Positions 7,294 through 48,118 of a stretch of DNA of 54,763 nucleotides are shown here, piece by piece. Each line of letters starts with the position of its first letter. Positions within the stretch are counted from its first letter, which is position 1. The notes beneath the pieces are model-generated. The model made no database searches and was not told the DNA's origin. It saw only the letters and a program-made list of their open reading frames with translations. A program made the translations under genes and the position numbers. Location: positions 1-54,763 of the forward strand of contig JAGWYI010000001.1 in the NCBI GenBank assembly GCA_018969455.1, read 5' to 3'. The DNA comes from Bacteroidota bacterium. Lineage in GTDB: Bacteria; Bacteroidota; Bacteroidia; Chitinophagales; Saprospiraceae.

Positions 7294-10200
7294 ATGGCAA
7301 TAAAATTAATTAAGGTCGCTAAAGAGTTCAACGTGGGTTTGCACACCATCGTCGAAACGCTGCATGGAAAAGGTTTCCAGGTAGACGAGAAACCGACGAC
7401 GGATATTACCGACGAAATGTTGGCAGTGCTCCAAAAAGAATTTCAAAAGGACCTTGTTATCAAACAGGAGGCAGACAAGCTGGCAAGGCCAACCCTTAAA
7501 AAAGAGCCAGCGCCCCTAAGTCCCCCTGCTGCAAATACAGGCGGAACGCCGGCTACTCCCCCGGCAACACGGCCTGCCATGTTACCACCTCGTGAAGATG
7601 GTACCAAAACGACGGCATCCCCTAACCTGCCGCCTAAAACTGAGCCTGCTCCCGTATCAAAAACACCTGAACCGGAGCTGCCTGTGCGCGAACGCCCAGC
7701 ATTGAAAATTGTGGGAAAAATTGATTTGGATGCCCCGAAAACGGCGCCTAAACCCCCGCAACCCGCTGTGGTAGAACCGGAAATGAAAAAACCGGAACCA
7801 ACGCCTCCTGTTGTTAAGCCTCTGGAAGAAAAGCCGGCAACTACGCCAACGCCTAGTCCCGAAGTTCCAGTTGCTGAAAAACCAAGCGAACTCCCAAGCG
7901 TTCAAAAAACAACGCCTGAACCACCCAAGAAGGAAGCCCGACAGGATTTTTTGAAGCGGGAAGATCCCCCTGTGCCTAAAAAGCAGGCCGATAATCGCCC
8001 TCCCAAAAGCCAGGAGTCAACGCCTGTGGTGGAAAAACCAACGCCAACATCCACACCCCCTACGCCACCACCAACGCCTCCTACGCCCCCAAGCGCAGAA
8101 GAACCCAAAACCGACGAACTCTACCGCGCAGATGCAACACCCCTCCGAGGCTTGAAAATTCTGGGCCGCATTAACCTCAATCCTCCACGAAAACCAGAAT
8201 CCTCCTCTGATCGAAATCAACAAGGAAATCAGCAAGGAAATAACCGCGGTGGAAATCAGCAAGGCGGCCAGAATCGAGATCGAGGTGGGAACCAAAATCG
8301 CGGTGGAAACAATCAGCAAGGCGGCGGCAACCGAAATCATCCGCAAAATCAGGGAGGCGGCCAAAACCGACCACCAAATCCTCAAGGCGGAAATCAAACT
8401 GGCGGCCAACAACAAGGCGGAACGGGAAATAACAACAACAACGACGACGCTAAGCGAAAACGCAAACGTAAAAAGGTGCCACAGCAGCCCGTAACAGCGG
8501 CTTCCCTGCAGGCAACTATGACGGGCAATCAAGGCGATAAAAAAGGTAAAGGACGCGTTGACGCCCCCCGTGAGGTTTCCCAAAAGGAAATTGAAGACCA
8601 AATTAAACAAACCATGGCGCGCCTAGGCGCAGGTGCAAGCCGCAAACGCCAAAAAATTCGCCGCGACAAACGTGATGTCATGCGCGAACGCGCTGAATTG
8701 GCCGAACAGGCACGCTCAGAAAGCGACAAAACCTTGCAGGTAACCGAGTTTATTTCGGTTTCTGACCTGGCATCGCTGCTCGAAATAAAACCCGCCGACA
8801 TCATCAAATCCTGTATGGCGCTCGGCATTTTTGTTTCCATCAACCAACGCCTCGATGCCGAAATCATTGAACTGGTCGCTGGCGAAAACGGGTATACCGT
8901 ACAATTTATCAGCGCGGAAGAACAGGTGGAAGTGGAAGAGGAGGAAATCGATGATCCAAAAGATCTGCGCCCACGACAACCCATTGTTACGGTAATGGGT
9001 CACGTTGACCATGGTAAAACATCCTTGCTTGACTTTATTCGCCGCGCAGATGTCGCCAGCGGCGAGGCCGGCGGTATCACACAGCACATCGGCGCATACG
9101 AGGTAATGCTCGACAAAGAAAACGAACACAAGAAAATCACATTCCTTGATACGCCTGGTCACGAAGCCTTTACGGCCATGCGTGCGCGGGGCGCCAAGGT
9201 AACCGATATTGCCGTAATTGTAATTGCTGCCGACGACAGCATCATGCCCCAAACCCGGGAGGCCATCAGCCACGCCCAGGCAGCCGGGGTACCACTGGTG
9301 TTTGCCATCAATAAAATCGATAAAAACGGCGCCGACCCGGAGCGGATTAAAAACGAACTGTCGCAGATGAATCTGTTGGTGGAAGAATGGGGCGGTAAAT
9401 ACCAAAGCCAGGATATTTCGGCCAAAAAAGGCTTAAATATCGACAAATTGCTCGAAAAAGTACTGCTGGAAGCCGAATTGCTCGAATTGAAAGCCAACCC
9501 CAAACGCCGTGCCGTTGGTACCGTACTGGAAGCATCTCTCGATAAAGGCCGAGGCTACGTAACCAAAATTCTGGTTGAAAACGGAACCTTGCGGAAAGGA
9601 GACCCTATTATTGCTGGCGAATTTGCCGGAAAGGTGAAAGCTATGTACAACGAACGCGGTAAGGAGGTAAAAGAAGCCGGTCCCGCATCGCCCGTATTGG
9701 TTTTGGGCCTACCCGGCGCACCTCAAGCCGGCGAAAAAATAAAAGTAACGGCTACCGATTCTGAAGCGAAAGAAATTGCCAACAAACGCGCTCAAATTAT
9801 CCGGGAGCAATCTAACCGTGCCAACAAACGGATCAGTCTTGAAGAAATCGGACGTCGTTTGGCTCTCGGCAACTTTAAGGAACTGAAGTTGATCGTAAAA
9901 GGGGACGTAGACGGTTCTGTAGAGGCATTGAGCGATTCTCTGATCAAACTTTCCATTGAAAAAGTGGCAGTTTCGGTGATTCACAAGGCTGTAGGTCAAA
10001 TCGTAGACTCCGACGTTATGTTGGCATCGGCATCCGATGCCATCATCATCGGTTTCCAGGTGCGCCCATCTATTACGGCCCGAAAACTGGCAGAAAAAGA
10101 AGGCGTGGAAATCAAACTCTACTCCATCATCTACGAAGCCATTGAAGTAGTGAAAGCAGCCATCCAGGGTATGTTGGAGCCTACAAAGGAGGAAGAAATC

Positions 10201-10506
10201 ATGAGTCAGGTGGAAATTCGCGAGGTGTACAAAATTTCAAAAGTGGGTACGGTGGCAGGTTGTTTCGTACAGGAAGGCAAAATCAGCCGAAATCACTTCC
10301 TGCGCATCATTCGAGATGGGATTGTGGTATACCCAACCAATCCGAACCAGCACGCTGAACTTGCTTCGCTCAAACGATTCAAGGAAGATGCCAAGGAAGT
10401 TAAAGCAGGTTTTGAATGCGGCTTGACCATCAAGAACTTCAATGACATCAAACCAGGTGACGTGCTCGAGTCCTATGTAATTAATGAAGTAAAAGCGACA
10501 GTTTAG
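7294..10506 (+). CDS. infB: Translation initiation factor IF-2
   Basis: 1070 aa. G domain motifs [24 protein letters not shown] and NKIDK, plus C-terminal IF-2 domains. The N-terminal ~400 aa are low complexity. Confidence 0.95.
8205..8450 (+). repeat. Imperfect short tandem repeats encoding an N/Q/G/R-rich tract inside infB
   Basis: Reiterated ggaaatcagcaagg- and ggcgg-type units. They encode [78 protein letters not shown]. Confidence 0.7.
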
Positions 10507-10529
10507 CACTTCCTTTACAATATTTACCC

Positions 10530-10567
10530 AAAAAATGCCTTCGTTCAAAACGAGGGCATTTTTTTTG
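10530..10567 (+). terminator. Rho-independent terminator of infB
   Basis: aaaatgccttcg / cgagggcatttt stem (one G-U pair) with loop ttcaaaa, followed by a T8 run. It starts 24 nt after the infB stop. Confidence 0.7.
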
Positions 10568-10591
10568 CAGCATCAAATAAAACACAACTTC

Positions 10592-11470
10592 ATGAAAGGA
10601 ATCATTCTTGCCGGCGGATTGGGAACCCGGCTTTATCCACTCACTTTGGCCGTCAGCAAACAATTAATGCCGGTATATGACAAGCCCATGATTTATTACC
10701 CCTTGTCTACGTTGATGCTCGCCGGTATGCGTGAAGTGCTTATTATTTCCACACCGCAAGATTTGCCCAAATTTGAACAATTGCTGGGCGACGGCTCTGA
10801 GCTGGGTATGCAAATTTCCTACGTACCACAATACGAACCCAATGGCCTGGCTCAGGCATTTGTTCTTGGCGCCCACTTTATCGGTTCTGATGATGCGGCA
10901 CTCATTCTGGGTGACAATATTTTTTACGGCGCCGGATTGGGTGAAATGGTCCGTTCCTGTAATAATCCAAACGGCGGTATTGTTTTTGCTTATCAAGTGG
11001 CAGACCCCGAACGTTACGGTGTGGTAGAATTTGATAAAAACCTCACTGCAGTAAGCATTGAAGAAAAACCGGCAGCGCCTAAAAGCAATTTCGCCGTTCC
11101 TGGGCTGTATTTTTATGACAACAGCGTGATTGAGGTAGCCAAAAACCTGAAACCCTCGCCTCGGGGCGAATACGAAATTACGGATGTCAACCGCTACTAC
11201 CTGGAACAAGGCAAATTGTCGGTGCGCCCTATGGGACGCGGCTTTGCCTGGCTCGATACAGGTACACATGCCTCTCTGATGCAAGCCGGACAATTTGTTC
11301 AAGCAATTGAAGAACGTCAGGGACTCAAAATTGGCTGCATTGAAGAAATTGCCTGGGAAATGGGCTTCATCGACGATGCTGGATTAGAAAAACTCGGACA
11401 CAAATACATTAAAAGCGGATATGGAACCTACCTGTTGAATCTTTTAAAATTCCGAATTAGTTTAAAATAA
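10592..11470 (+). CDS. rfbA: Glucose-1-phosphate thymidylyltransferase
   Basis: [19 protein letters not shown]-terminus, [19 protein letters not shown], and [10 protein letters not shown]. The track start at 10535 reads through the infB terminator, so I use ATG 10592. Confidence 0.9.
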
Positions 11471-11797
11471 TTCAAAGGGGCTGCAACCTTTTGTTCGCTG
11501 GTATAATCTATATTTTGTGTGGTACGCGATACCATGAAAGGTGGTTCTTGATTCATTCATCATTACTGCCGTACCGAGGCGCCTGAACCTGTACGCCAAT
11601 CACACACCCGTTAAAAATGTATCCATTGCAAGCCGAATTTTGCAATTTGGGTTAGATTGATTTGGAAATCAGGGCATAAAACATTTACTTTCGTGCAAGC
11701 ATTCAGGGCTATTAGCCCTCAGGTTAATGCCTGGTACAGAAACAACAACTGTCGCACCCACACGTTATACGATAATACCCTGGCTTTTAATTCGCAT

Positions 11798-12541
11798 ATG
11801 TCCCGTTTCGAAAAAAATAACCATCGACCCGCCGACTCCTGGATGAGCGAGGAAACCCTTCGGCGGGAATTGAGGTCTGTACGTGCACAACGCCGCTCTA
11901 TTGCTGGGAAAAAAAGCGATTGGCGAACAGGTATGGTGCTTGCGCTTTGTTTGAGTTCACTTGGTGGGCTCTATTATCGGTACTGGCCAACCCAAGAGCA
12001 AGCGATTGAACAAATTGCCGAGGTGCAGCCTGCTGCAATGGTTTTGGGCATACAAACTCCAAAAGCATCAACCCATTCGAAAGTGCCTTCGCGTATGCAA
12101 GCGAACGCGCCCGTACAACGACATCGTAAAAGTAACTCCAGCCCTTGCCCCACCGATGTGATACTTCCCAATGCCTACGCACCCAATTTGTTGCTCGAAC
12201 AACTTTCGGGTACAATGAAATGTTCCAATCACCTGATTCAAACCAAATATCCTGCGCCCGATACCTTGTATGCGCGCCGCAATTGCATGGTTCAAATACC
12301 TTTTGAAGGTACGGTTGATGTGGGACAGGGTGTGTTAAACCTAGCCGTATACAGCAATCAATCAGATAATTATAAAAAAGAAAAGCCTGTATATGAAGAG
12401 CCTTTGTTGCTGGAAAAAACAGGAAAAAGCCAGCGTTATGCTTTGAAACCATTAATGGCGCTTCCACCGGGTTTGTATTATTTTGTAATTGAGAACAAGA
12501 ATGAGCAAACCCTTGCCGTGGGTAAATTTAAGGTGGGCTGA
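11798..12541 (+). CDS. Hypothetical single-pass membrane protein
   Basis: ATG 11798 (MSRFEKNNHRP...), one TM helix (GMVLALCLSSLGGLYY), and a C-terminal region with no motif I recognise. The track start at 11657 is a TTG extension. Confidence 0.45.
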   Translation: MSRFEKNNHRPADSWMSEETLRRELRSVRAQRRSIAGKKSDWRTGMVLALCLSSLGGLYYRYWPTQEQAIEQIAEVQPAAMVLGIQTPKASTHSKVPSRMQANAPVQRHRKSNSSPCPTDVILPNAYAPNLLLEQLSGTMKCSNHLIQTKYPAPDTLYARRNCMVQIPFEGTVDVGQGVLNLAVYSNQSDNYKKEKPVYEEPLLLEKTGKSQRYALKPLMALPPGLYYFVIENKNEQTLAVGKFKVG

Positions 12542-12996
12542 AACGAAAAGTACGGTTTATCAAGGTTTCGACGCCCAAGGCGAAATATACTTTACGCCGC
12601 CAGATTTTGTGCATAACGATCTTTATAAATCATTATAAATCAGCGAAATCCATCCTGATTTATCCACAAAAATCCGGCGAATCCTGGTATAGGAAGCATT
12701 CAGACGACAAAGCGCACCTGAATCTGGCGCGAAAGCGAAATGTTTTAACATAATTGTTGCCTGCATGCTAACATATTCAGGGCCAGTAAAATTTTATCTT
12801 TCACTGTCCCTGAATTGTTAGAGTCTACAAAAATTTATATTTTTCTCTTATATGACCGTCTTTTCCCAGCGGTTTTTCTTTTTTTTAGCCGCAAATTGTA
12901 CTATTATCCCGAGTATTCAGGACAAAAAGTGGCGAATTGGGCTAAAAACGCCCTATTTCTGGGAATATAGCGTTTCAGACTCAAACGTGCCACGTT

Positions 12997-43562: not shown

Positions 43563-43670
43563 TTTTTTTCGATTTTTGGTTTAATGGGGAGAGAACAAAA
43601 AACAAAATGAACAAGCCCGGATGGATTTTACCATCCAGCCCCCAATCACCCGTACTTGTAGAAGACCATA

Positions 43671-43705
43671 ACAGCCAAAACGTTGAATAACAACGTTTTG
43701 GCTGT
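43671..43705 (+). terminator. Perfect 15-bp stem hairpin between the M23 gene and uvrB
   Basis: acagccaaaacgttg - aataa - caacgttttggctgt. It lies 109 nt after the M23 stop and ends 14 nt before the uvrB ATG. Only a weak T-rich tail follows (gttatta). Confidence 0.45.
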
Positions 43706-43719
43706 GTTATTAGATTGAT

Positions 43720-45756
43720 ATGACTTTTAAACTAAACTCCGATTATGTGCCAACCGGCGATCAGCCGCAGGCCATCCATCAACTTGTCGAAGGCATAAAA
43801 GCCGGCGAAAAAGCACAAGTACTCCTGGGCGTTACAGGATCTGGCAAAACGTTTACCATGGCCAATGTAATCGCCCAACTCAACAAACCGACCCTTATCC
43901 TTACACATAATAAAACCCTCACGGCTCAACTCTACGGAGAATTGCAAACCTTTTTCCCGGATAATGCCGTGGAATATTTTGTGTCGTACTACGACTACTA
44001 CCAGCCTGAGGCGTATGTGGCCGTAACAGATACATTTATCGAAAAAGACCTGCAAATCAATGAGTTGGTAGACAAATTGCGGCTGAAGGCCACCAGCACC
44101 CTGCTCTCGGGCCGCCGAGACATCATTATTGTTGCTTCCGTTTCCTGTATTTATGGTATGGGAAACCCCGAAGATTATAAAAGCGGCATCATCCGCCTGT
44201 TTAAAGGCCAAAAAATATCCAGAACCCAGTTTTTGTACCAGCTCGTGGAAAGCTTGTACGCGCGCACAGAAACTGATTTCGCCCGAGGTACCTTTCGCGT
44301 AAAAGGCGATACTGTGGACATCAACCTGCCGTATGCAGACTGGGGCTATCGGGTCATGTTCTGGGGCGACGAAATTGAAAGCATTGAAAGCATTGACAAC
44401 GAGCGCGGCAAACGCATTGAAGTGATGGAAACCGCCGCCATTTTCCCGGCAAACCTGTACGTGGCCCCTAAAGAACGCCTCAATCAGGTAATTGCTGAAA
44501 TTCAGGACGAGATGACGGCGCAGGAACAGTATTTTTTGCAGGATGGCCGCATGCTGGAATCGCGCAGGATTCGCGAGCGCACCACCTTCGACGTGGAAAT
44601 GATCAAAGAACTGGGCTATTGCAGTGGCATCGAAAACTATTCGCGCTTTTTCGACCGCCGCGAACCGGGAACACGTCCTTTCTGCCTGCTCGATTATTTC
44701 CCCGACGATTATTTGATGATTATAGACGAGAGCCACGTGACCCTGCCCCAATTGCGCGGTATGTGGGGCGGTGACCGATCCCGAAAACAAATGCTCGTCA
44801 ATTACGGCTTTCGCTTGCCCTCCGCCATGGACAACCGGCCACTCAATTTCGATGAGTTTCAGGCGCTCATCAATCAGGTGATTTTCGTGAGTGCTACCCC
44901 CGGCGATTTCGAACTGGAAAAAACCGAAGGCGTAGTCGTAGAACAACTCGTGCGCCCGACCGGCCTGCTCGATCCGCCCATCGATGTGCGCCCTTCCCTC
45001 AATCAGGTAGACGATCTGCTGGAGGAAATTCGCCTGCGCAGCACACGCAACGAACGTACACTCGTAACCACACTCACCAAGCGCATGGCCGAAGAATTGT
45101 CCGCCTATTTGGCCAAAGTCGGCATCAAATGCCGCTACATCCACTCCGAAGTGGAAACCCTGGAACGCGTGGAAATCCTGCGCGACCTGCGCCTGGGCGA
45201 ATATGATGTGCTCATCGGCGTAAACCTGCTCCGGGAAGGCCTCGACCTGCCGGAAGTATCCTTAGTGGCCATCCTGGACGCCGACAAAGAGGGCTTCCTG
45301 CGCAACGTGCGCTCGCTCACGCAAACCGCCGGCCGTGCCGCCAGAAATTCCAACGGACTCGTCATTTTTTATGCCGACAAAATGACCGATTCCATGCGCA
45401 ACACCATCGACGAAACCAACCGCCGCCGCTCGGTGCAGATTGCCTACAACGAGGCCCATGGCATTACACCACGCACGGTGGGCAAAACCCGCGAACAGAT
45501 CCTGGCCCAACGCAGCATCCTCGACATCCGAGGCGTGGAAGCCACCAAATATTATGTAGAGCAAGACCCGAATAACCTGGCTGCCGAGCCCGTGGTGGCC
45601 CTCGCCAACCGCAGCCAACTGGAAAAAATGATTGATGAGGTGGAACAAAAGATGAAAAAAGCGGCGAAAGACCTCGATTTCATCACGGCCGCGCAGTTTC
45701 GGGATGAAATGCTGGCGCTACAGAAAACGTTGCGGGAGAAGTTTGGGAAGGAGTGA
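43720..45756 (+). CDS. uvrB: Excinuclease ABC subunit B
   Basis: 678 aa. Motifs include GDQPQAI, Walker A GVTGSGKTFT, the beta-hairpin region YYDYYQPEAY, helicase motifs, and the C-terminal UVR domain (ITAAQFRDEMLALQ). Confidence 0.95.
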   Translation: MTFKLNSDYVPTGDQPQAIHQLVEGIKAGEKAQVLLGVTGSGKTFTMANVIAQLNKPTLILTHNKTLTAQLYGELQTFFPDNAVEYFVSYYDYYQPEAYVAVTDTFIEKDLQINELVDKLRLKATSTLLSGRRDIIIVASVSCIYGMGNPEDYKSGIIRLFKGQKISRTQFLYQLVESLYARTETDFARGTFRVKGDTVDINLPYADWGYRVMFWGDEIESIESIDNERGKRIEVMETAAIFPANLYVAPKERLNQVIAEIQDEMTAQEQYFLQDGRMLESRRIRERTTFDVEMIKELGYCSGIENYSRFFDRREPGTRPFCLLDYFPDDYLMIIDESHVTLPQLRGMWGGDRSRKQMLVNYGFRLPSAMDNRPLNFDEFQALINQVIFVSATPGDFELEKTEGVVVEQLVRPTGLLDPPIDVRPSLNQVDDLLEEIRLRSTRNERTLVTTLTKRMAEELSAYLAKVGIKCRYIHSEVETLERVEILRDLRLGEYDVLIGVNLLREGLDLPEVSLVAILDADKEGFLRNVRSLTQTAGRAARNSNGLVIFYADKMTDSMRNTIDETNRRRSVQIAYNEAHGITPRTVGKTREQILAQRSILDIRGVEATKYYVEQDPNNLAAEPVVALANRSQLEKMIDEVEQKMKKAAKDLDFITAAQFRDEMLALQKTLREKFGKE

Positions 45757-45947
45757 TGAGGGGATGTCCCAAACGCAATGGGAAGGGCACATTTTGTATA
45801 GTCCTGCAAAAGGCCTCTAAACATTGCGCACTTCGCATTTTGTGTTGGGGGGGAAATCTTGGAGCTACCGGTCTGAGCGTAATTCAATCACAATCAATCT
45901 AATGAAATAAATAATGTTGGATGTCTGTAGATCTGGCGCTTTGAACT

Positions 45948-45955
45948 TATTTTTG
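45948..45955 (+). promoter_or_regulatory. Candidate -7 box (TATTTTTG) upstream of the GIY-YIG gene, outside the inverted repeat
   Basis: Exact TAnnTTTG match 39 nt upstream of ATG 45994 and 20 nt upstream of the left repeat. Confidence 0.25.
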
Positions 45956-45974
45956 TTTGAATAAGGCTATTACG

Positions 45975-45990
45975 TGTTGGCTGCTATTGT
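45975..45990. repeat. Left arm of a perfect 16-bp inverted repeat (tgttggctgctattgt)
   Basis: Exact reverse complement of 46982-46997. It ends 3 nt before the GIY-YIG ATG. Confidence 0.95.
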
Positions 45991-45993
45991 AAA

Positions 45994-46974
45994 ATGACTG
46001 CGGAAATAATCAACCTATTAGGATTTCAATTTGACACCGCCTTCAATGTGCAAGGACGACTATCTATTGCCGACCTTTTCCCAAAATCTAAAAGCCGCTG
46101 CGGCATTTATTTGCTCAACTTTTGTGATGACACCTTTTATATTGGGCAAGCCGTTGACACAGTAAAAAGATTTGCTCAACACAGAAAAAATTATGACAAC
46201 ATTGAAAGACTTTGGTTTCAACCTGTAAAAAAGGAAAACTTGAACAAGGTTGAGCAAAGACTAATTCAGCAAGCAGAAACGCAAGGACTTTTACTAAAAA
46301 ATAAAACTTTCGTATCAAACATTATTGGCAACACCGACCTTGACTTAATTATTTCGCCGACAGAACAAGACAATTGGCTTGAGAACGATGTTGAGATTTC
46401 AAATAACGGTTATGACTTGTATGAAACTGTTGAAGTTAAACACAAAATTAAATACCGACAAAATTTTGAAAAGCTACAGCAAGTTGAAAACTACGAACAG
46501 ATCAAACGAATTTTGAGTTTGTACATAAGAAAGGGTTTGCCTGCTTTTAAGAAAACGGAATTATCGTTTTGGGCATTAAGTTGTATGCCATCAACAAACA
46601 TCAACACTTATCCAAGATACTTCTGTTTGAATGTAAATGCAATGGAAGTTTTTGTTTTAGGTTACGAAAGGAAAACAAAGAAGCCATTCACTTTTATCGT
46701 TTTAACAAGTCTTTTTTTTGACAATGACAAGGAACTTAATCGGCTTTGTGGCAAGTATAAAACTTTGGAAGCAGAACGGTCAAAGTATAGAGCCGCTGGT
46801 GCAGACCAAGTTCGCTTTCATTTTTCGGATTTGACTGAACTGGAAAACATATTATTGAATGAACCTAAAGTTGTCAATTCCATTAAAGAACTGAATTTGC
46901 GGCTTATGAGAAAGGGTGGAACAATTTATTCGCCATTTCATTGCTTTGACTTGGCAAAAGACGTTTTAGTGTAG
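45994..46974 (+). CDS. GIY-YIG nuclease domain protein with an unassigned ~200-aa C-terminal domain
   Basis: 326 aa. The GIY-YIG motifs are GIYLLNF...TFYIGQAVDTVKRFAQHRKN...VEQRLIQ (GIY, YIG, Arg, Glu). The C-terminal region (FWALSCMP...YFCLNVNAMEVFVLGY...LNLRLMRKGGTIYSPFHC) is not recognised. Confidence 0.75.
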   Translation: MTAEIINLLGFQFDTAFNVQGRLSIADLFPKSKSRCGIYLLNFCDDTFYIGQAVDTVKRFAQHRKNYDNIERLWFQPVKKENLNKVEQRLIQQAETQGLLLKNKTFVSNIIGNTDLDLIISPTEQDNWLENDVEISNNGYDLYETVEVKHKIKYRQNFEKLQQVENYEQIKRILSLYIRKGLPAFKKTELSFWALSCMPSTNINTYPRYFCLNVNAMEVFVLGYERKTKKPFTFIVLTSLFFDNDKELNRLCGKYKTLEAERSKYRAAGADQVRFHFSDLTELENILLNEPKVVNSIKELNLRLMRKGGTIYSPFHCFDLAKDVLV

Positions 46975-46981
46975 AGTGAGA

Positions 46982-46997
46982 ACAATAGCAGCCAACA
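46982..46997. repeat. Right arm of a perfect 16-bp inverted repeat (acaatagcagccaaca)
   Basis: Exact reverse complement of 45975-45990. It starts 7 nt after the GIY-YIG stop. Confidence 0.95.
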
Positions 46998-47115
46998 AAA
47001 GTATTTGCAAAAGCATTGGCAAAAGCGTGGGAGAAGTACCTATTTAAGCATTTGATCTCTAATAAACTGAAGTGCTAATTTAAACTTTTGTGCTTTCTAT
47101 TTCCTCCAGGCGCTC

Positions 47116-47163
47116 GCGCTGGGCTATAGCCCAGTGCGCAACCATCCTGCGGGCTATGCCCGC
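47116..47163. repeat. Two adjacent GC-rich hairpins sharing a GGGCTAT(A)GCCC core (REP-like)
   Basis: gcgctgggc-tata-gcccagtgc (47116-47137) forms a 9-bp stem with one G-U pair. gcgggc-tat-gcccgc (47149-47163) forms a 6-bp stem. Confidence 0.4.
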
Positions 47164-47180
47164 CAGAGGCCCAAGCAGCA

Positions 47181-47220
47181 CCCAAAAGGGCCAATTTGCT
47201 GTTAATCACCAAATTGGCCC
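47181..47220 (-). terminator. Rho-independent terminator of the DUF2911 gene
   Basis: On the minus strand: GGGCCAATTT - 13-nt loop - AAATTGGCCC, followed by TTTTGGG. It begins 26 nt after the stop at 47246. Confidence 0.7.
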
Positions 47221-47245
47221 GCTCATACTTTTAAATCCCAATCGC

Positions 47246-48118
47246 CTACATCTTCCCTTTCTTCCAATTCATCACCGCCGAATTGATATCTTTTTCCAGT
47301 TCCTTAAAATAATCGCCTTCGTCTTTGCTGGTTTTGCTTGCGGCCGTCACTTTGTCCACGGTTGCCAGGGCCGATTTGAAATCGCTGTTTTTGGCCTGAA
47401 TTTGCGCCTGCATCCACAAGTTCCACACTTGCGGCTTGAGTTCCACGCTCTTGTTGATGTGTTCGAGTGCCATTTTAGGGTCGCCATTGTTTTTGAGTAA
47501 AAACTCGGCTGCATCGGCGTGAATCCACCATTGGTCATCGGCTTTGCCCTCTTTTACGCCCTTATCAATGTTAGCCATAGCCATTTTCATGGTTTCCATG
47601 GTAAAGGGGATGCTCACGCGCTTGCGTTCCCATTCAAACACGATGGCGCCCTGGTCGATGCCACGGTCTTCAATGCGGTAGGTAAGATGCTCAACCGGTT
47701 TGGCCAAGGCCTCAACGGCAACATCAAGGCGTGCAATGTCCTTTTCTTCCTTATATTGATAAGCGCCCCACTGTTCAAAGTCTGAATTAAAAATGGCAGT
47801 CCAGGTATCGCCTTCTTTCGGGATGAGAAAAAAGCCGTATTTGCCTTTTGAAAGATTGTTTTTGCCAATCATAACCGGCGTGCCAAAGGTAACATCGGTG
47901 CACTTGTTGGCGCCTGCGCGCCAAACTTTGCCATAAGGGACCAAGGCGCCGTAAACAGGGCGCTTGCGTACAGCGGGACTGGAATAATTCACAGTAACAT
48001 CGGTGAGACCAACGCGGTAACTAACCGAGGCTTTAGGGCTGGATTGGGGGAGTTCGAGTTGGGCAAAGGCTACAGTATGCGCCAAAAGCAGGCATACAAC
48101 AAAAAGGAATTGTTTCAT
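47246..48118 (-). CDS. DUF2911 family secreted protein with a C-terminal TPR-like helical region
   Basis: Signal peptide MKQFLFVVCLLLAHTVAFAQ, then SPKASVSYRVGLTDVTVNYSSP...VWRAGAN..T...F..PV.IG...L..G.Y, typical of DUF2911. Confidence 0.7.
   Translation of the reverse strand: MKQFLFVVCLLLAHTVAFAQLELPQSSPKASVSYRVGLTDVTVNYSSPAVRKRPVYGALVPYGKVWRAGANKCTDVTFGTPVMIGKNNLSKGKYGFFLIPKEGDTWTAIFNSDFEQWGAYQYKEEKDIARLDVAVEALAKPVEHLTYRIEDRGIDQGAIVFEWERKRVSIPFTMETMKMAMANIDKGVKEGKADDQWWIHADAAEFLLKNNGDPKMALEHINKSVELKPQVWNLWMQAQIQAKNSDFKSALATVDKVTAASKTSKDEGDYFKELEKDINSAVMNWKKGKM

Follow-up and report, generated by a model that had tools for sequence, protein, structure and literature searches.

A probable integron cassette fossil with a gene for a GIY-YIG family protein between uvrB and a DUF2911 gene in a Saprospiraceae chromosome

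Integron cassettes and the locus under study

An integron cassette consists of a promoterless gene and an attC site (59-base element), which is an imperfect palindrome with the layout R''-L''-loop-L'-R', and the integron integrase cuts between the G and the TT of the R' core (GTTRRRY). The linear cassette therefore starts with TTRRRY and carries RYYYAAC after the stop codon, so that its 5' end is complementary to its own R'', and the two ends make up one stem when the cassette is circular. What such a cassette is expected to leave in a genome is a gene enclosed by a perfect inverted repeat, without a recombinase close by. A gene of this kind is described here from a member of the Saprospiraceae (NCBI GenBank assembly GCA_018969455.1, contig JAGWYI010000001.1, positions 1 to 54,763); this whole stretch of 54,763 nt is referred to as the window. 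The gene encodes a GIY-YIG family protein, and the segment from 45976 to ~47107 that holds it is very probably one integron gene cassette, solitary in the chromosome between uvrB and a DUF2911 gene, as judged by comparison with homologous sequences.

Integrons have been reported in Bacteroidota, and off-target insertion and integrase loss are recognised origins of attC sites without an integrase (PMC8618304). The window segment resembles the cassettes of sedentary chromosomal integrons in its promoterless single open reading frame (ORF), the 5' boundary at G/TT (the slash marks the boundary here and below), and AGCCAAC 15 nt past the stop codon. The L'' box and the central part of its attC are homologous to array sites, its sister copies stand in arrays, and one homolog lies beside IntI. 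It differs from these cassettes in that it stands alone, with no integrase or attI in the 54.7 kb and with an attC that lacks the distal L' and R'; its cores are each one position off the proteobacterial consensus, and the attC sites of its family are long (131-201 nt). Clusters of attC sites lacking integron integrases (CALIN) share with the window a cassette and attC located away from an integrase, and are proposed to originate through off-target insertion, intI loss, or rearrangement (PMC8618304). CALIN are defined by a cluster of attC sites, whereas the window has a single truncated one and is better termed a cassette fossil.

Two groups of nucleases are also comparable. I-TevI-type homing endonucleases, free-standing or intron-encoded, have an N-terminal GIY-YIG domain with conserved positions, a larger C-terminal part that in the window protein is possibly DNA-binding, and an association with mobile DNA. 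In contrast, the C-terminal domain of the window protein has no similarity to the DNA-binding modules of I-TevI, its gene has no intron or homing-site context, and its mobility would be through the integron system. Nuclease-fusion cassettes of sedentary chromosomal integrons can act as anti-phage systems (Darracq et al., bioRxiv 10.1101/2024.07.02.601686). The likeness to the window consists of a single gene with a nuclease domain and an unassigned domain, and of a family carried in arrays rich in Mrr, toxin-antitoxin, and restriction-type cassettes; the GIY-YIG system of the window family is not described there. GIY-YIG cassettes have been mentioned in passing in integrons (PMC10609294).

Read as a cassette, the locus is composed as follows.

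45975-45990, plus strand: left arm of the inverted repeat; cassette 5' end, with the R' core GTTGGCT (45976-45982) and an 8-nt inward extension
45994-46974, plus strand: cassette ORF of 326 amino acids, ATG to TAG; GIY-YIG domain at residues ~35-105, C-terminal domain at ~120-326
46982-46997, plus strand: right arm of the inverted repeat; attC start, with the inverse core R'' AGCCAAC (46990-46996) preceded by an 8-nt extension
46989-47107, plus strand: truncated attC; R'', L'' (~47002-47033), a variable centre, and the first L' bases (~47100-47107)
47004-47027, plus strand: 12-nt tandem duplication (TTTGCAAAAGCA / TTGGCAAAAGCG) in the L'' box; an insertion relative to the attC profile

A preliminary description of this DNA had drawn attention to a 16-bp inverted repeat bracketing one ORF, and its coordinates and spacing are reproduced by sequence reading and a repeat search. 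The left arm TGTTGGCTGCTATTGT is the exact reverse complement of the right arm ACAATAGCAGCCAACA, and 991 nt separate the two; the ORF starts 3 nt past the left arm and ends 7 nt short of the right arm. No further copy of the 16-mer with fewer than three mismatches was found within the window, and the pair is its sole perfect inverted repeat of at least 16 nt whose arms are separated by 2 kb or less. The same description held that a repeat of this kind is not expected by chance. When the window was simulated 200 times with a first-order Markov model, such a repeat arose at least once in 11 of the sequences, so that the length taken alone is only modestly improbable (about 0.05); it is the tight placement around the ORF and the conservation in homologs that make the repeat non-random.

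Cassette boundaries and attC sites

Positions 45976-46997 of the window align at 77% DNA identity with the array-borne cassette in L001, L002, L056, and L057. The alignment opens with the G of GTT (45976) and stops within the attC. The core GTTGGCT deviates from GTTRRRY at one position and the 5' boundary falls at G/TT; the integrase crossover would be placed between G45976 and T45977. The 16-nt clasp of the window is, on this comparison, best read as the R'/R'' stem of the attC R-box, in which GTTGGCT and its extension pair with the extension and AGCCAAC. In this attC family the clasp usually runs for 9-10 perfect pairs, is interrupted by a mismatch (A versus G) at position 11, and continues for four more pairs. 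In the window, 15 perfect pairs are counted from GTT and the position-11 mismatch is absent, while one outer pair, matching by chance, raises the stem from 15 to 16 pairs.

In two cases one cassette stands at different positions with identical boundaries, a sign of site-specific mobility. One Agriterribacter contig carries two cassette copies (L001 and L002) as a 100% identical unit of 1210 bp, the ends of which are c/GTTGCCTGCA and ccGTTA/. The cassette P0005 has different neighbours in L072 and in L074, and at either end the two sequences part exactly at GTT. The arms are GTTGCCTGC/GCAGGCAAC in L001, L002, L004, L005, L012, and L075, GTTGGCTGC/GCAGCCAAC in the window, GTTAGCCGT/GCGGCTAAC in a Chloroflexota homolog (L035), and GTTGGGCGT/ACGCCCAAC in a distant Chitinophagaceae copy (L043); the R'/R'' signature thus also surrounds the homologs in these last two. 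The arms co-vary with the cassette across contexts, which indicates that they belong to the cassette and not to the target.

L056 and L057 are same-strand arrays of small unrelated genes, seen over ~20 kb around each copy of the cassette. The array genes encode PIN toxins, Mrr, acetyltransferases, glyoxalase, SnoaL, beta-lactamase, and others, and an attC follows each. These attC sites, 131-201 nt in length, follow the pattern RYYYAAC-N6-GGTTTGGCnnTATGGCGGC ... CCGCCACnnCGCCAAGCC-N6-GTTRRRY, that is, the R''-L''-loop-L'-R' layout. Across 12 attC sites the L''/L' stem comprises 17 pairs, of which 12 show compensatory double changes and almost none is broken, and the attC of L001 folds as a single long hairpin with bulged bases. 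A perfect 9/9 complement between the 5' GTTnnnnnn and the cassette's own R'' is present in 19 array cassettes; with at most one mismatch allowed, the complement is seen in 26 of 28 candidates from a regular-expression search, a few of the candidates being false.

We also note several features of these arrays. The two stretches, each of 21 kb, lie 78 kb apart in one contig (JASGIZ010000002.1, 272-293 kb for L056 and 350-371 kb for L057), and would make up an integron array of ~100 kb in Chitinophagaceae if they are continuous. Cassettes are duplicated within and between them: Mrr occurs twice in L056, and VanZ and DUF6624 occur in both. Three ORF-less intervals of L056 (1029-1428, 4968-5362, and 17215-17609) are cassette-sized and bounded by attC, and each holds four tandem 100-nt repeats (GAAGCGAAGCCCACTCCGATACTTTTGTTTTCCAATCATC...) with no match in Rfam; the intervals could be a non-coding cassette.

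An attC profile was built with nhmmer from 21 array attC sites of Agriterribacter, Ginsengibacter, and Parafilimonas. It matches the 54.7-kb window once, at 46989-47107 (E 1.9e-7), over model positions 2-109 of 138, and the match stops exactly at a step in GC content. Downstream of this point no 3'-half profile match was found for the distal L', the spacer, or the R' core, and the long attC hairpin of the L001 type did not form when the window attC region was folded. Complete foldable attC sites are present in the sister copies L001, L004, L005, L072, and L074, and that of the window is incomplete. Neither a second attC (by the profile) nor a tyrosine recombinase or IntI (by motif scan and tblastn with IntI) was found in the window, in agreement with the earlier remark that no recombinase is nearby. 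A truncated attC, no integrase, and no second attC together imply that the cassette is solitary and no longer excisable; the window copy thus appears to be a truncated derivative and not a functional cassette. The remark had gone on to call this architecture unusual, but a recombinase-free state is normal for a cassette outside its integron. A minus-strand segment at 45839-45870 was considered as the missing L'-R' half and set aside, as it scores only 2-3 bits and is taken as chance. Rfam searches of the window region and of the array returned nothing useful.

The low GC content of the segment, estimated by eye in the preliminary description, is borne out by calculation. In 300-nt windows it is 0.34-0.37 over ~45900-47100, versus 0.49-0.59 in uvrB and 0.48-0.51 in the DUF2911 gene; at 0.36, the cassette ORF is the lowest of the 40 ORFs, and the whole window averages 0.48. 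The preliminary description was right that the segment looks foreign. Its closest relatives (75-89% amino acid identity) belong to low-GC Chitinophagales genomes, the GC content of which (0.33-0.38) matches the cassette, which points to this group as the donor. The cassette would derive from a low-GC Chitinophagales-type integron, and would either have entered a non-attC site through an integrase acting in trans or be what is left of a decayed array. A later loss of the distal L' and R' would then have made excision impossible. Mobility would have been supplied in trans by the integron integrase, and not by the encoded nuclease.

Linkage to an integrase is observed in Azohydromonas sediminis (L051); the first cassette there is a homolog (35% identity), with a divergent integron integrase 136 nt away. 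This integrase scores 508.7 bits with NF011946 (equivalog cutoff 435) and 453.8 with TIGR02249 (cutoff 265), and the cassette begins at G/TTAGGTC. Other copies stand at different stages of isolation. The L072 copy, which a peptidase gene directly precedes, opens an array without an integrase, and the identical cassette in L074 is preceded by an attC; attC profile matches in L072 end at 9407 and no integrase is present in 6 kb upstream. In L075, a solitary copy, the repeat is intact and the attC is cut within L'', and in L071 R'' is mutated to AAG and the attC has decayed. A metagenome scan for close relatives gave five loci, with no integrase and no attC profile match at E <= 0.01. Stepwise attC decay with the ORF kept, in several independent solitary copies, suggests that the gene is useful to its hosts.

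Several neighbourhoods deserve mention in their own right. Downstream of the L072 array, at 9614-12611 on the same strand, lie genes for a helix-turn-helix protein, a D12-class methyltransferase, a SacI-type restriction enzyme, and a TIR-domain protein, a setting rich in defence genes. In Hymenobacter qilianensis (L017; 1518-2870, 5471-6946), a homolog of 56% identity is located directly downstream of a 450-amino-acid tyrosine integrase, and a nearby 491-amino-acid ORF is, by eye, presumably primase/helicase-like; this homolog is cargo of an integrative island and not an integron cassette. A recombinase fragment lies upstream of the homolog in L015.

The encoded protein and its family

The window protein taken alone matches the Pfam GIY-YIG family PF01541 below threshold (E 0.031, 15 bits, cutoff 22.6), while 29 of 33 family members match it. 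In an alignment of 33 sequences, G37-I38-Y39, Y49-I50-G51, R59, H63, E87/E95, and N103 are invariant; the motif region aligns with I-TevI residues 3-37, and we take these positions to correspond to the catalytic residues of I-TevI. The AlphaFold model is confident, with a predicted local distance difference test score (pLDDT) of 90.6. Its N-terminal domain has the alpha/beta GIY-YIG fold and matches phage GIY-YIG nucleases in a Foldseek search of BFVD, with probabilities of 0.97-1.0 over ~90-100 columns, and one uncharacterised siphovirus protein matches the model over 237 alignment columns (E 1e-5). The assignment to GIY-YIG proteins made by eye is thereby upheld through the family matches, the invariant motifs, and the structural matches. 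The confidently modelled C-terminal domain (~120-326), which contains invariant W193, C197, R208, Y265, H316, and C317, has no sequence or fold match in the PDB, and the fold search of the PDB returned no structure at E below 0.1.

The family, conserved at a full length of ~326 amino acids, is present in Chitinophagaceae, Cytophagales, Saprospiraceae, and Hymenobacter. Homologs at 32-46% identity are found in Burkholderiales, Desulfobacterota, Chloroflexota, Acidobacteriota, Gemmatimonadota, Planctomycetota, and Actinomycetota. NCBIfam gave no match for the window protein, UvrC and Cho included, and no UvrC domains were found with Pfam. PADLOC and PHROGs gave matches at the level of the GIY-YIG domain only (PADLOC PDC-S14, E 1.7e-5, residues 34-95). 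Of the checks on function that had been proposed earlier, the defence search thus returned a weak domain-level match, and structure prediction left the C-terminal domain unmatched in the PDB.

The product is predicted to be an active GIY-YIG endonuclease in which the C-terminal domain would give target specificity, with an I-TevI-like domain order. Its role would most plausibly be defence or selfish DNA cleavage, and the stand-alone defence nuclease considered in the preliminary description is a possible case of the former. A more specific proposal, which we put forward tentatively and consider rather unlikely, is that the family represents a new single-gene anti-phage or anti-plasmid nuclease, or a selfish site-specific nuclease that aids the retention or spread of its own cassette. 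Either nuclease role would explain the carriage by integrons in several phyla, the double copy in one array, and the intact survival after stranding in the window, L071, and L075. The architecture is ordinary in kind, and what makes the locus of interest is chiefly the uncharacterised nuclease family, along with the long Bacteroidota arrays. The window shows plainly what a cassette fossil in a Bacteroidota chromosome looks like; Chitinophagaceae metagenome-assembled genomes hold long cassette arrays with long, strongly covarying attC sites; and the GIY-YIG cassette proteins, with their unmatched C-terminal domain, are widespread.

Alternative explanations and flanking DNA

The variation at the locus was followed in a population set of 10 metagenome contigs with an identical DUF2911 protein, eight of which reach the cassette site. 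All eight, which are of the same species, show the cassette in one orientation, and neither its repeat nor its ORF is disrupted; the ORF differences are 4 synonymous and 0 non-synonymous in one haplotype group and 1 synonymous and 1 non-synonymous in the other. Five of the eight contigs (L058, L060, L062, L064, and L065) carry a 13-nt insertion, TGTACGTATATTT, directly 5' of ACGTGTTGGC (site 45972/45973). As a separate observation, this insertion yields GTATATTTACGT/GTTGG, which resembles the sequence upstream of the cassette in L072 and L075, namely TATATTTGTG, then T or A, directly before GTTGC; the latter sequence holds a TAnnTTTG promoter-like box.

Among the readings that compete with a stranded integron cassette, the nearest is an autonomous minimal mobile element, in which the arms would be terminal inverted repeats recognised by the encoded GIY-YIG nuclease acting as a transposase or homing enzyme. 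The tight fit of the repeat around a single nuclease gene agrees with it, as do the spread of the family across phyla at high identity, the many members on contigs of ~1.1-1.2 kb, and the solitary copies that adjoin core genes in several genomes. Nevertheless, array cassettes that have no nuclease (Mrr, PIN, acetyltransferase, and others) bear the same kind of clasp, the mobile unit common to the duplicate copies ends not at the repeat but ~200 nt past its right arm, at the attC R' site, target-site duplications were not found, and many homologs have no repeat at all. We therefore consider this reading very unlikely; of the mobile or homing cassette put forward in the preliminary description, the cassette stands, and the arms are R'/R'' halves rather than transposon-type inverted repeats. 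A 6-nt direct repeat, GGCGCT (45934 / 47108), was examined as a junction or target-site duplication and rejected as too short and off the homology boundary. Pairing of the 5' and 3' ends of the mRNA, or of the DNA, could instead regulate translation or stability of the nuclease, with the start codon 3 nt from the stem. The 16/16 pairs are more perfect than in sister cassettes and identical in all population contigs, and, with a candidate promoter upstream of the left arm, the two arms could be part of one transcript. At the DNA level, however, the repeat has an origin that is fully explained, a 16-bp RNA stem at a 1-kb range has no special support, and sister copies with a mismatched or lost repeat (L003, L006-L008) keep an intact ORF; end-pairing, which we regard as highly improbable, would in any case be an addition and not an alternative origin.

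The inverted arms, with the only TAnnTTTG box outside them, had also suggested an invertible ON/OFF gene switch operated by recombination between the arms. There is no invertase or recombinase in the 54.7 kb, the arms are accounted for as R'/R'', and the eight independent metagenome contigs that span the cassette all show it in the same orientation, which leaves such a switch with next to no likelihood. It is just as hard to credit that the gene entered the loop of a host 32-bp palindrome serving as a bidirectional terminator, or that it encodes a Cho/UvrC-like nuclease partner of UvrB. In favour are the GIY-YIG domains of UvrC and Cho, the convergent flanking genes, and the adjacent uvrB. Yet at unrelated loci, too, the gene keeps its arms, which co-vary with it, and the DUF2911 gene has a hairpin of its own at 47188-47220, contrary to a split host palindrome; the homologs stand among unrelated cassettes, the uvrB adjacency is unique to this genome, and the protein matches no NCBIfam model of UvrC or Cho, contrary to a UvrB partner.

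Several points weigh against the stranded-cassette reading itself. An empty site was not found, as all population contigs that reach the site carry the insert, and in relatives the DUF2911 locus (62-75% identity) shows no synteny with uvrB. The insertion event and the exact right boundary are accordingly putative, placed solely by homology and GC content. The attC is incomplete, and a strict attC or IntegronFinder-type call might fail on it. No integrase was found beside the Bacteroidota arrays within the available flanks, and the only integrase linkage is that of the 35%-identical homolog in a betaproteobacterium. The perfect 16 nt in the window also exceed the 9-10 perfect pairs in other cassettes; loss of the one mismatch would explain this, although selection on an RNA or DNA hairpin could conceivably have led to it.

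The DNA around the putative cassette contains the following features.

43720-45756, plus strand: uvrB; host core gene, left of the insertion
45757-45974, plus strand: non-cassette DNA between uvrB and the cassette; AT-rich from ~45880, with a TAnnTTTG box at 45948-45955
47108-47245, no strand assigned: GC-rich host intergenic DNA; begins at the attC truncation point with a jump in GC content
47188-47220: 14-bp hairpin (GGGCCAATTTGCTG / CACCAAATTGGCCC), followed on the minus strand by CTTTTGGG; found as a repeat pair and by folding
47246-48118, minus strand: DUF2911 gene (E 8.5e-49); host gene, right of the insertion

The domain search confirms the flanking genes as uvrB and a DUF2911 gene, both of which point towards the insert. 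The sequence at 45757-45974 shows no homology to that upstream of other cassette copies, and nothing in common beyond ~10 nt was found when the upstream DNA of the window, L072, L075, L071, L004, L006, and L007 was aligned. The TAnnTTTG box noticed earlier is present in this stretch. It could drive the promoterless cassette, the gene of which is probably expressed from upstream host DNA; a scan for sigma-70 promoters and terminators was uninformative for Bacteroidota. To the right, an exact 26-mer of the flank had no match in metagenome contigs. The hairpin at 47188-47220 is likely the terminator of the DUF2911 gene, which gives the host gene pair its own terminator, separate from the 16-nt repeat.

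Some minor features of the window are also noted. The GC-rich DNA at 47120-47165, to the right of the truncation point, contains the short palindromes GGGCTATAGCCC and GCGGGCTATGCCCGC, and the minus strand of 46978-47225 folds better than shuffled sequences (z = -2.9). A perfect hairpin at 43671-43705, with 14-nt arms that start at 43671 and 43692, is located just upstream of the uvrB start; one of its arms overlaps a three-mismatch match of the 16-mer (43665-43680), which is probably a coincidence.

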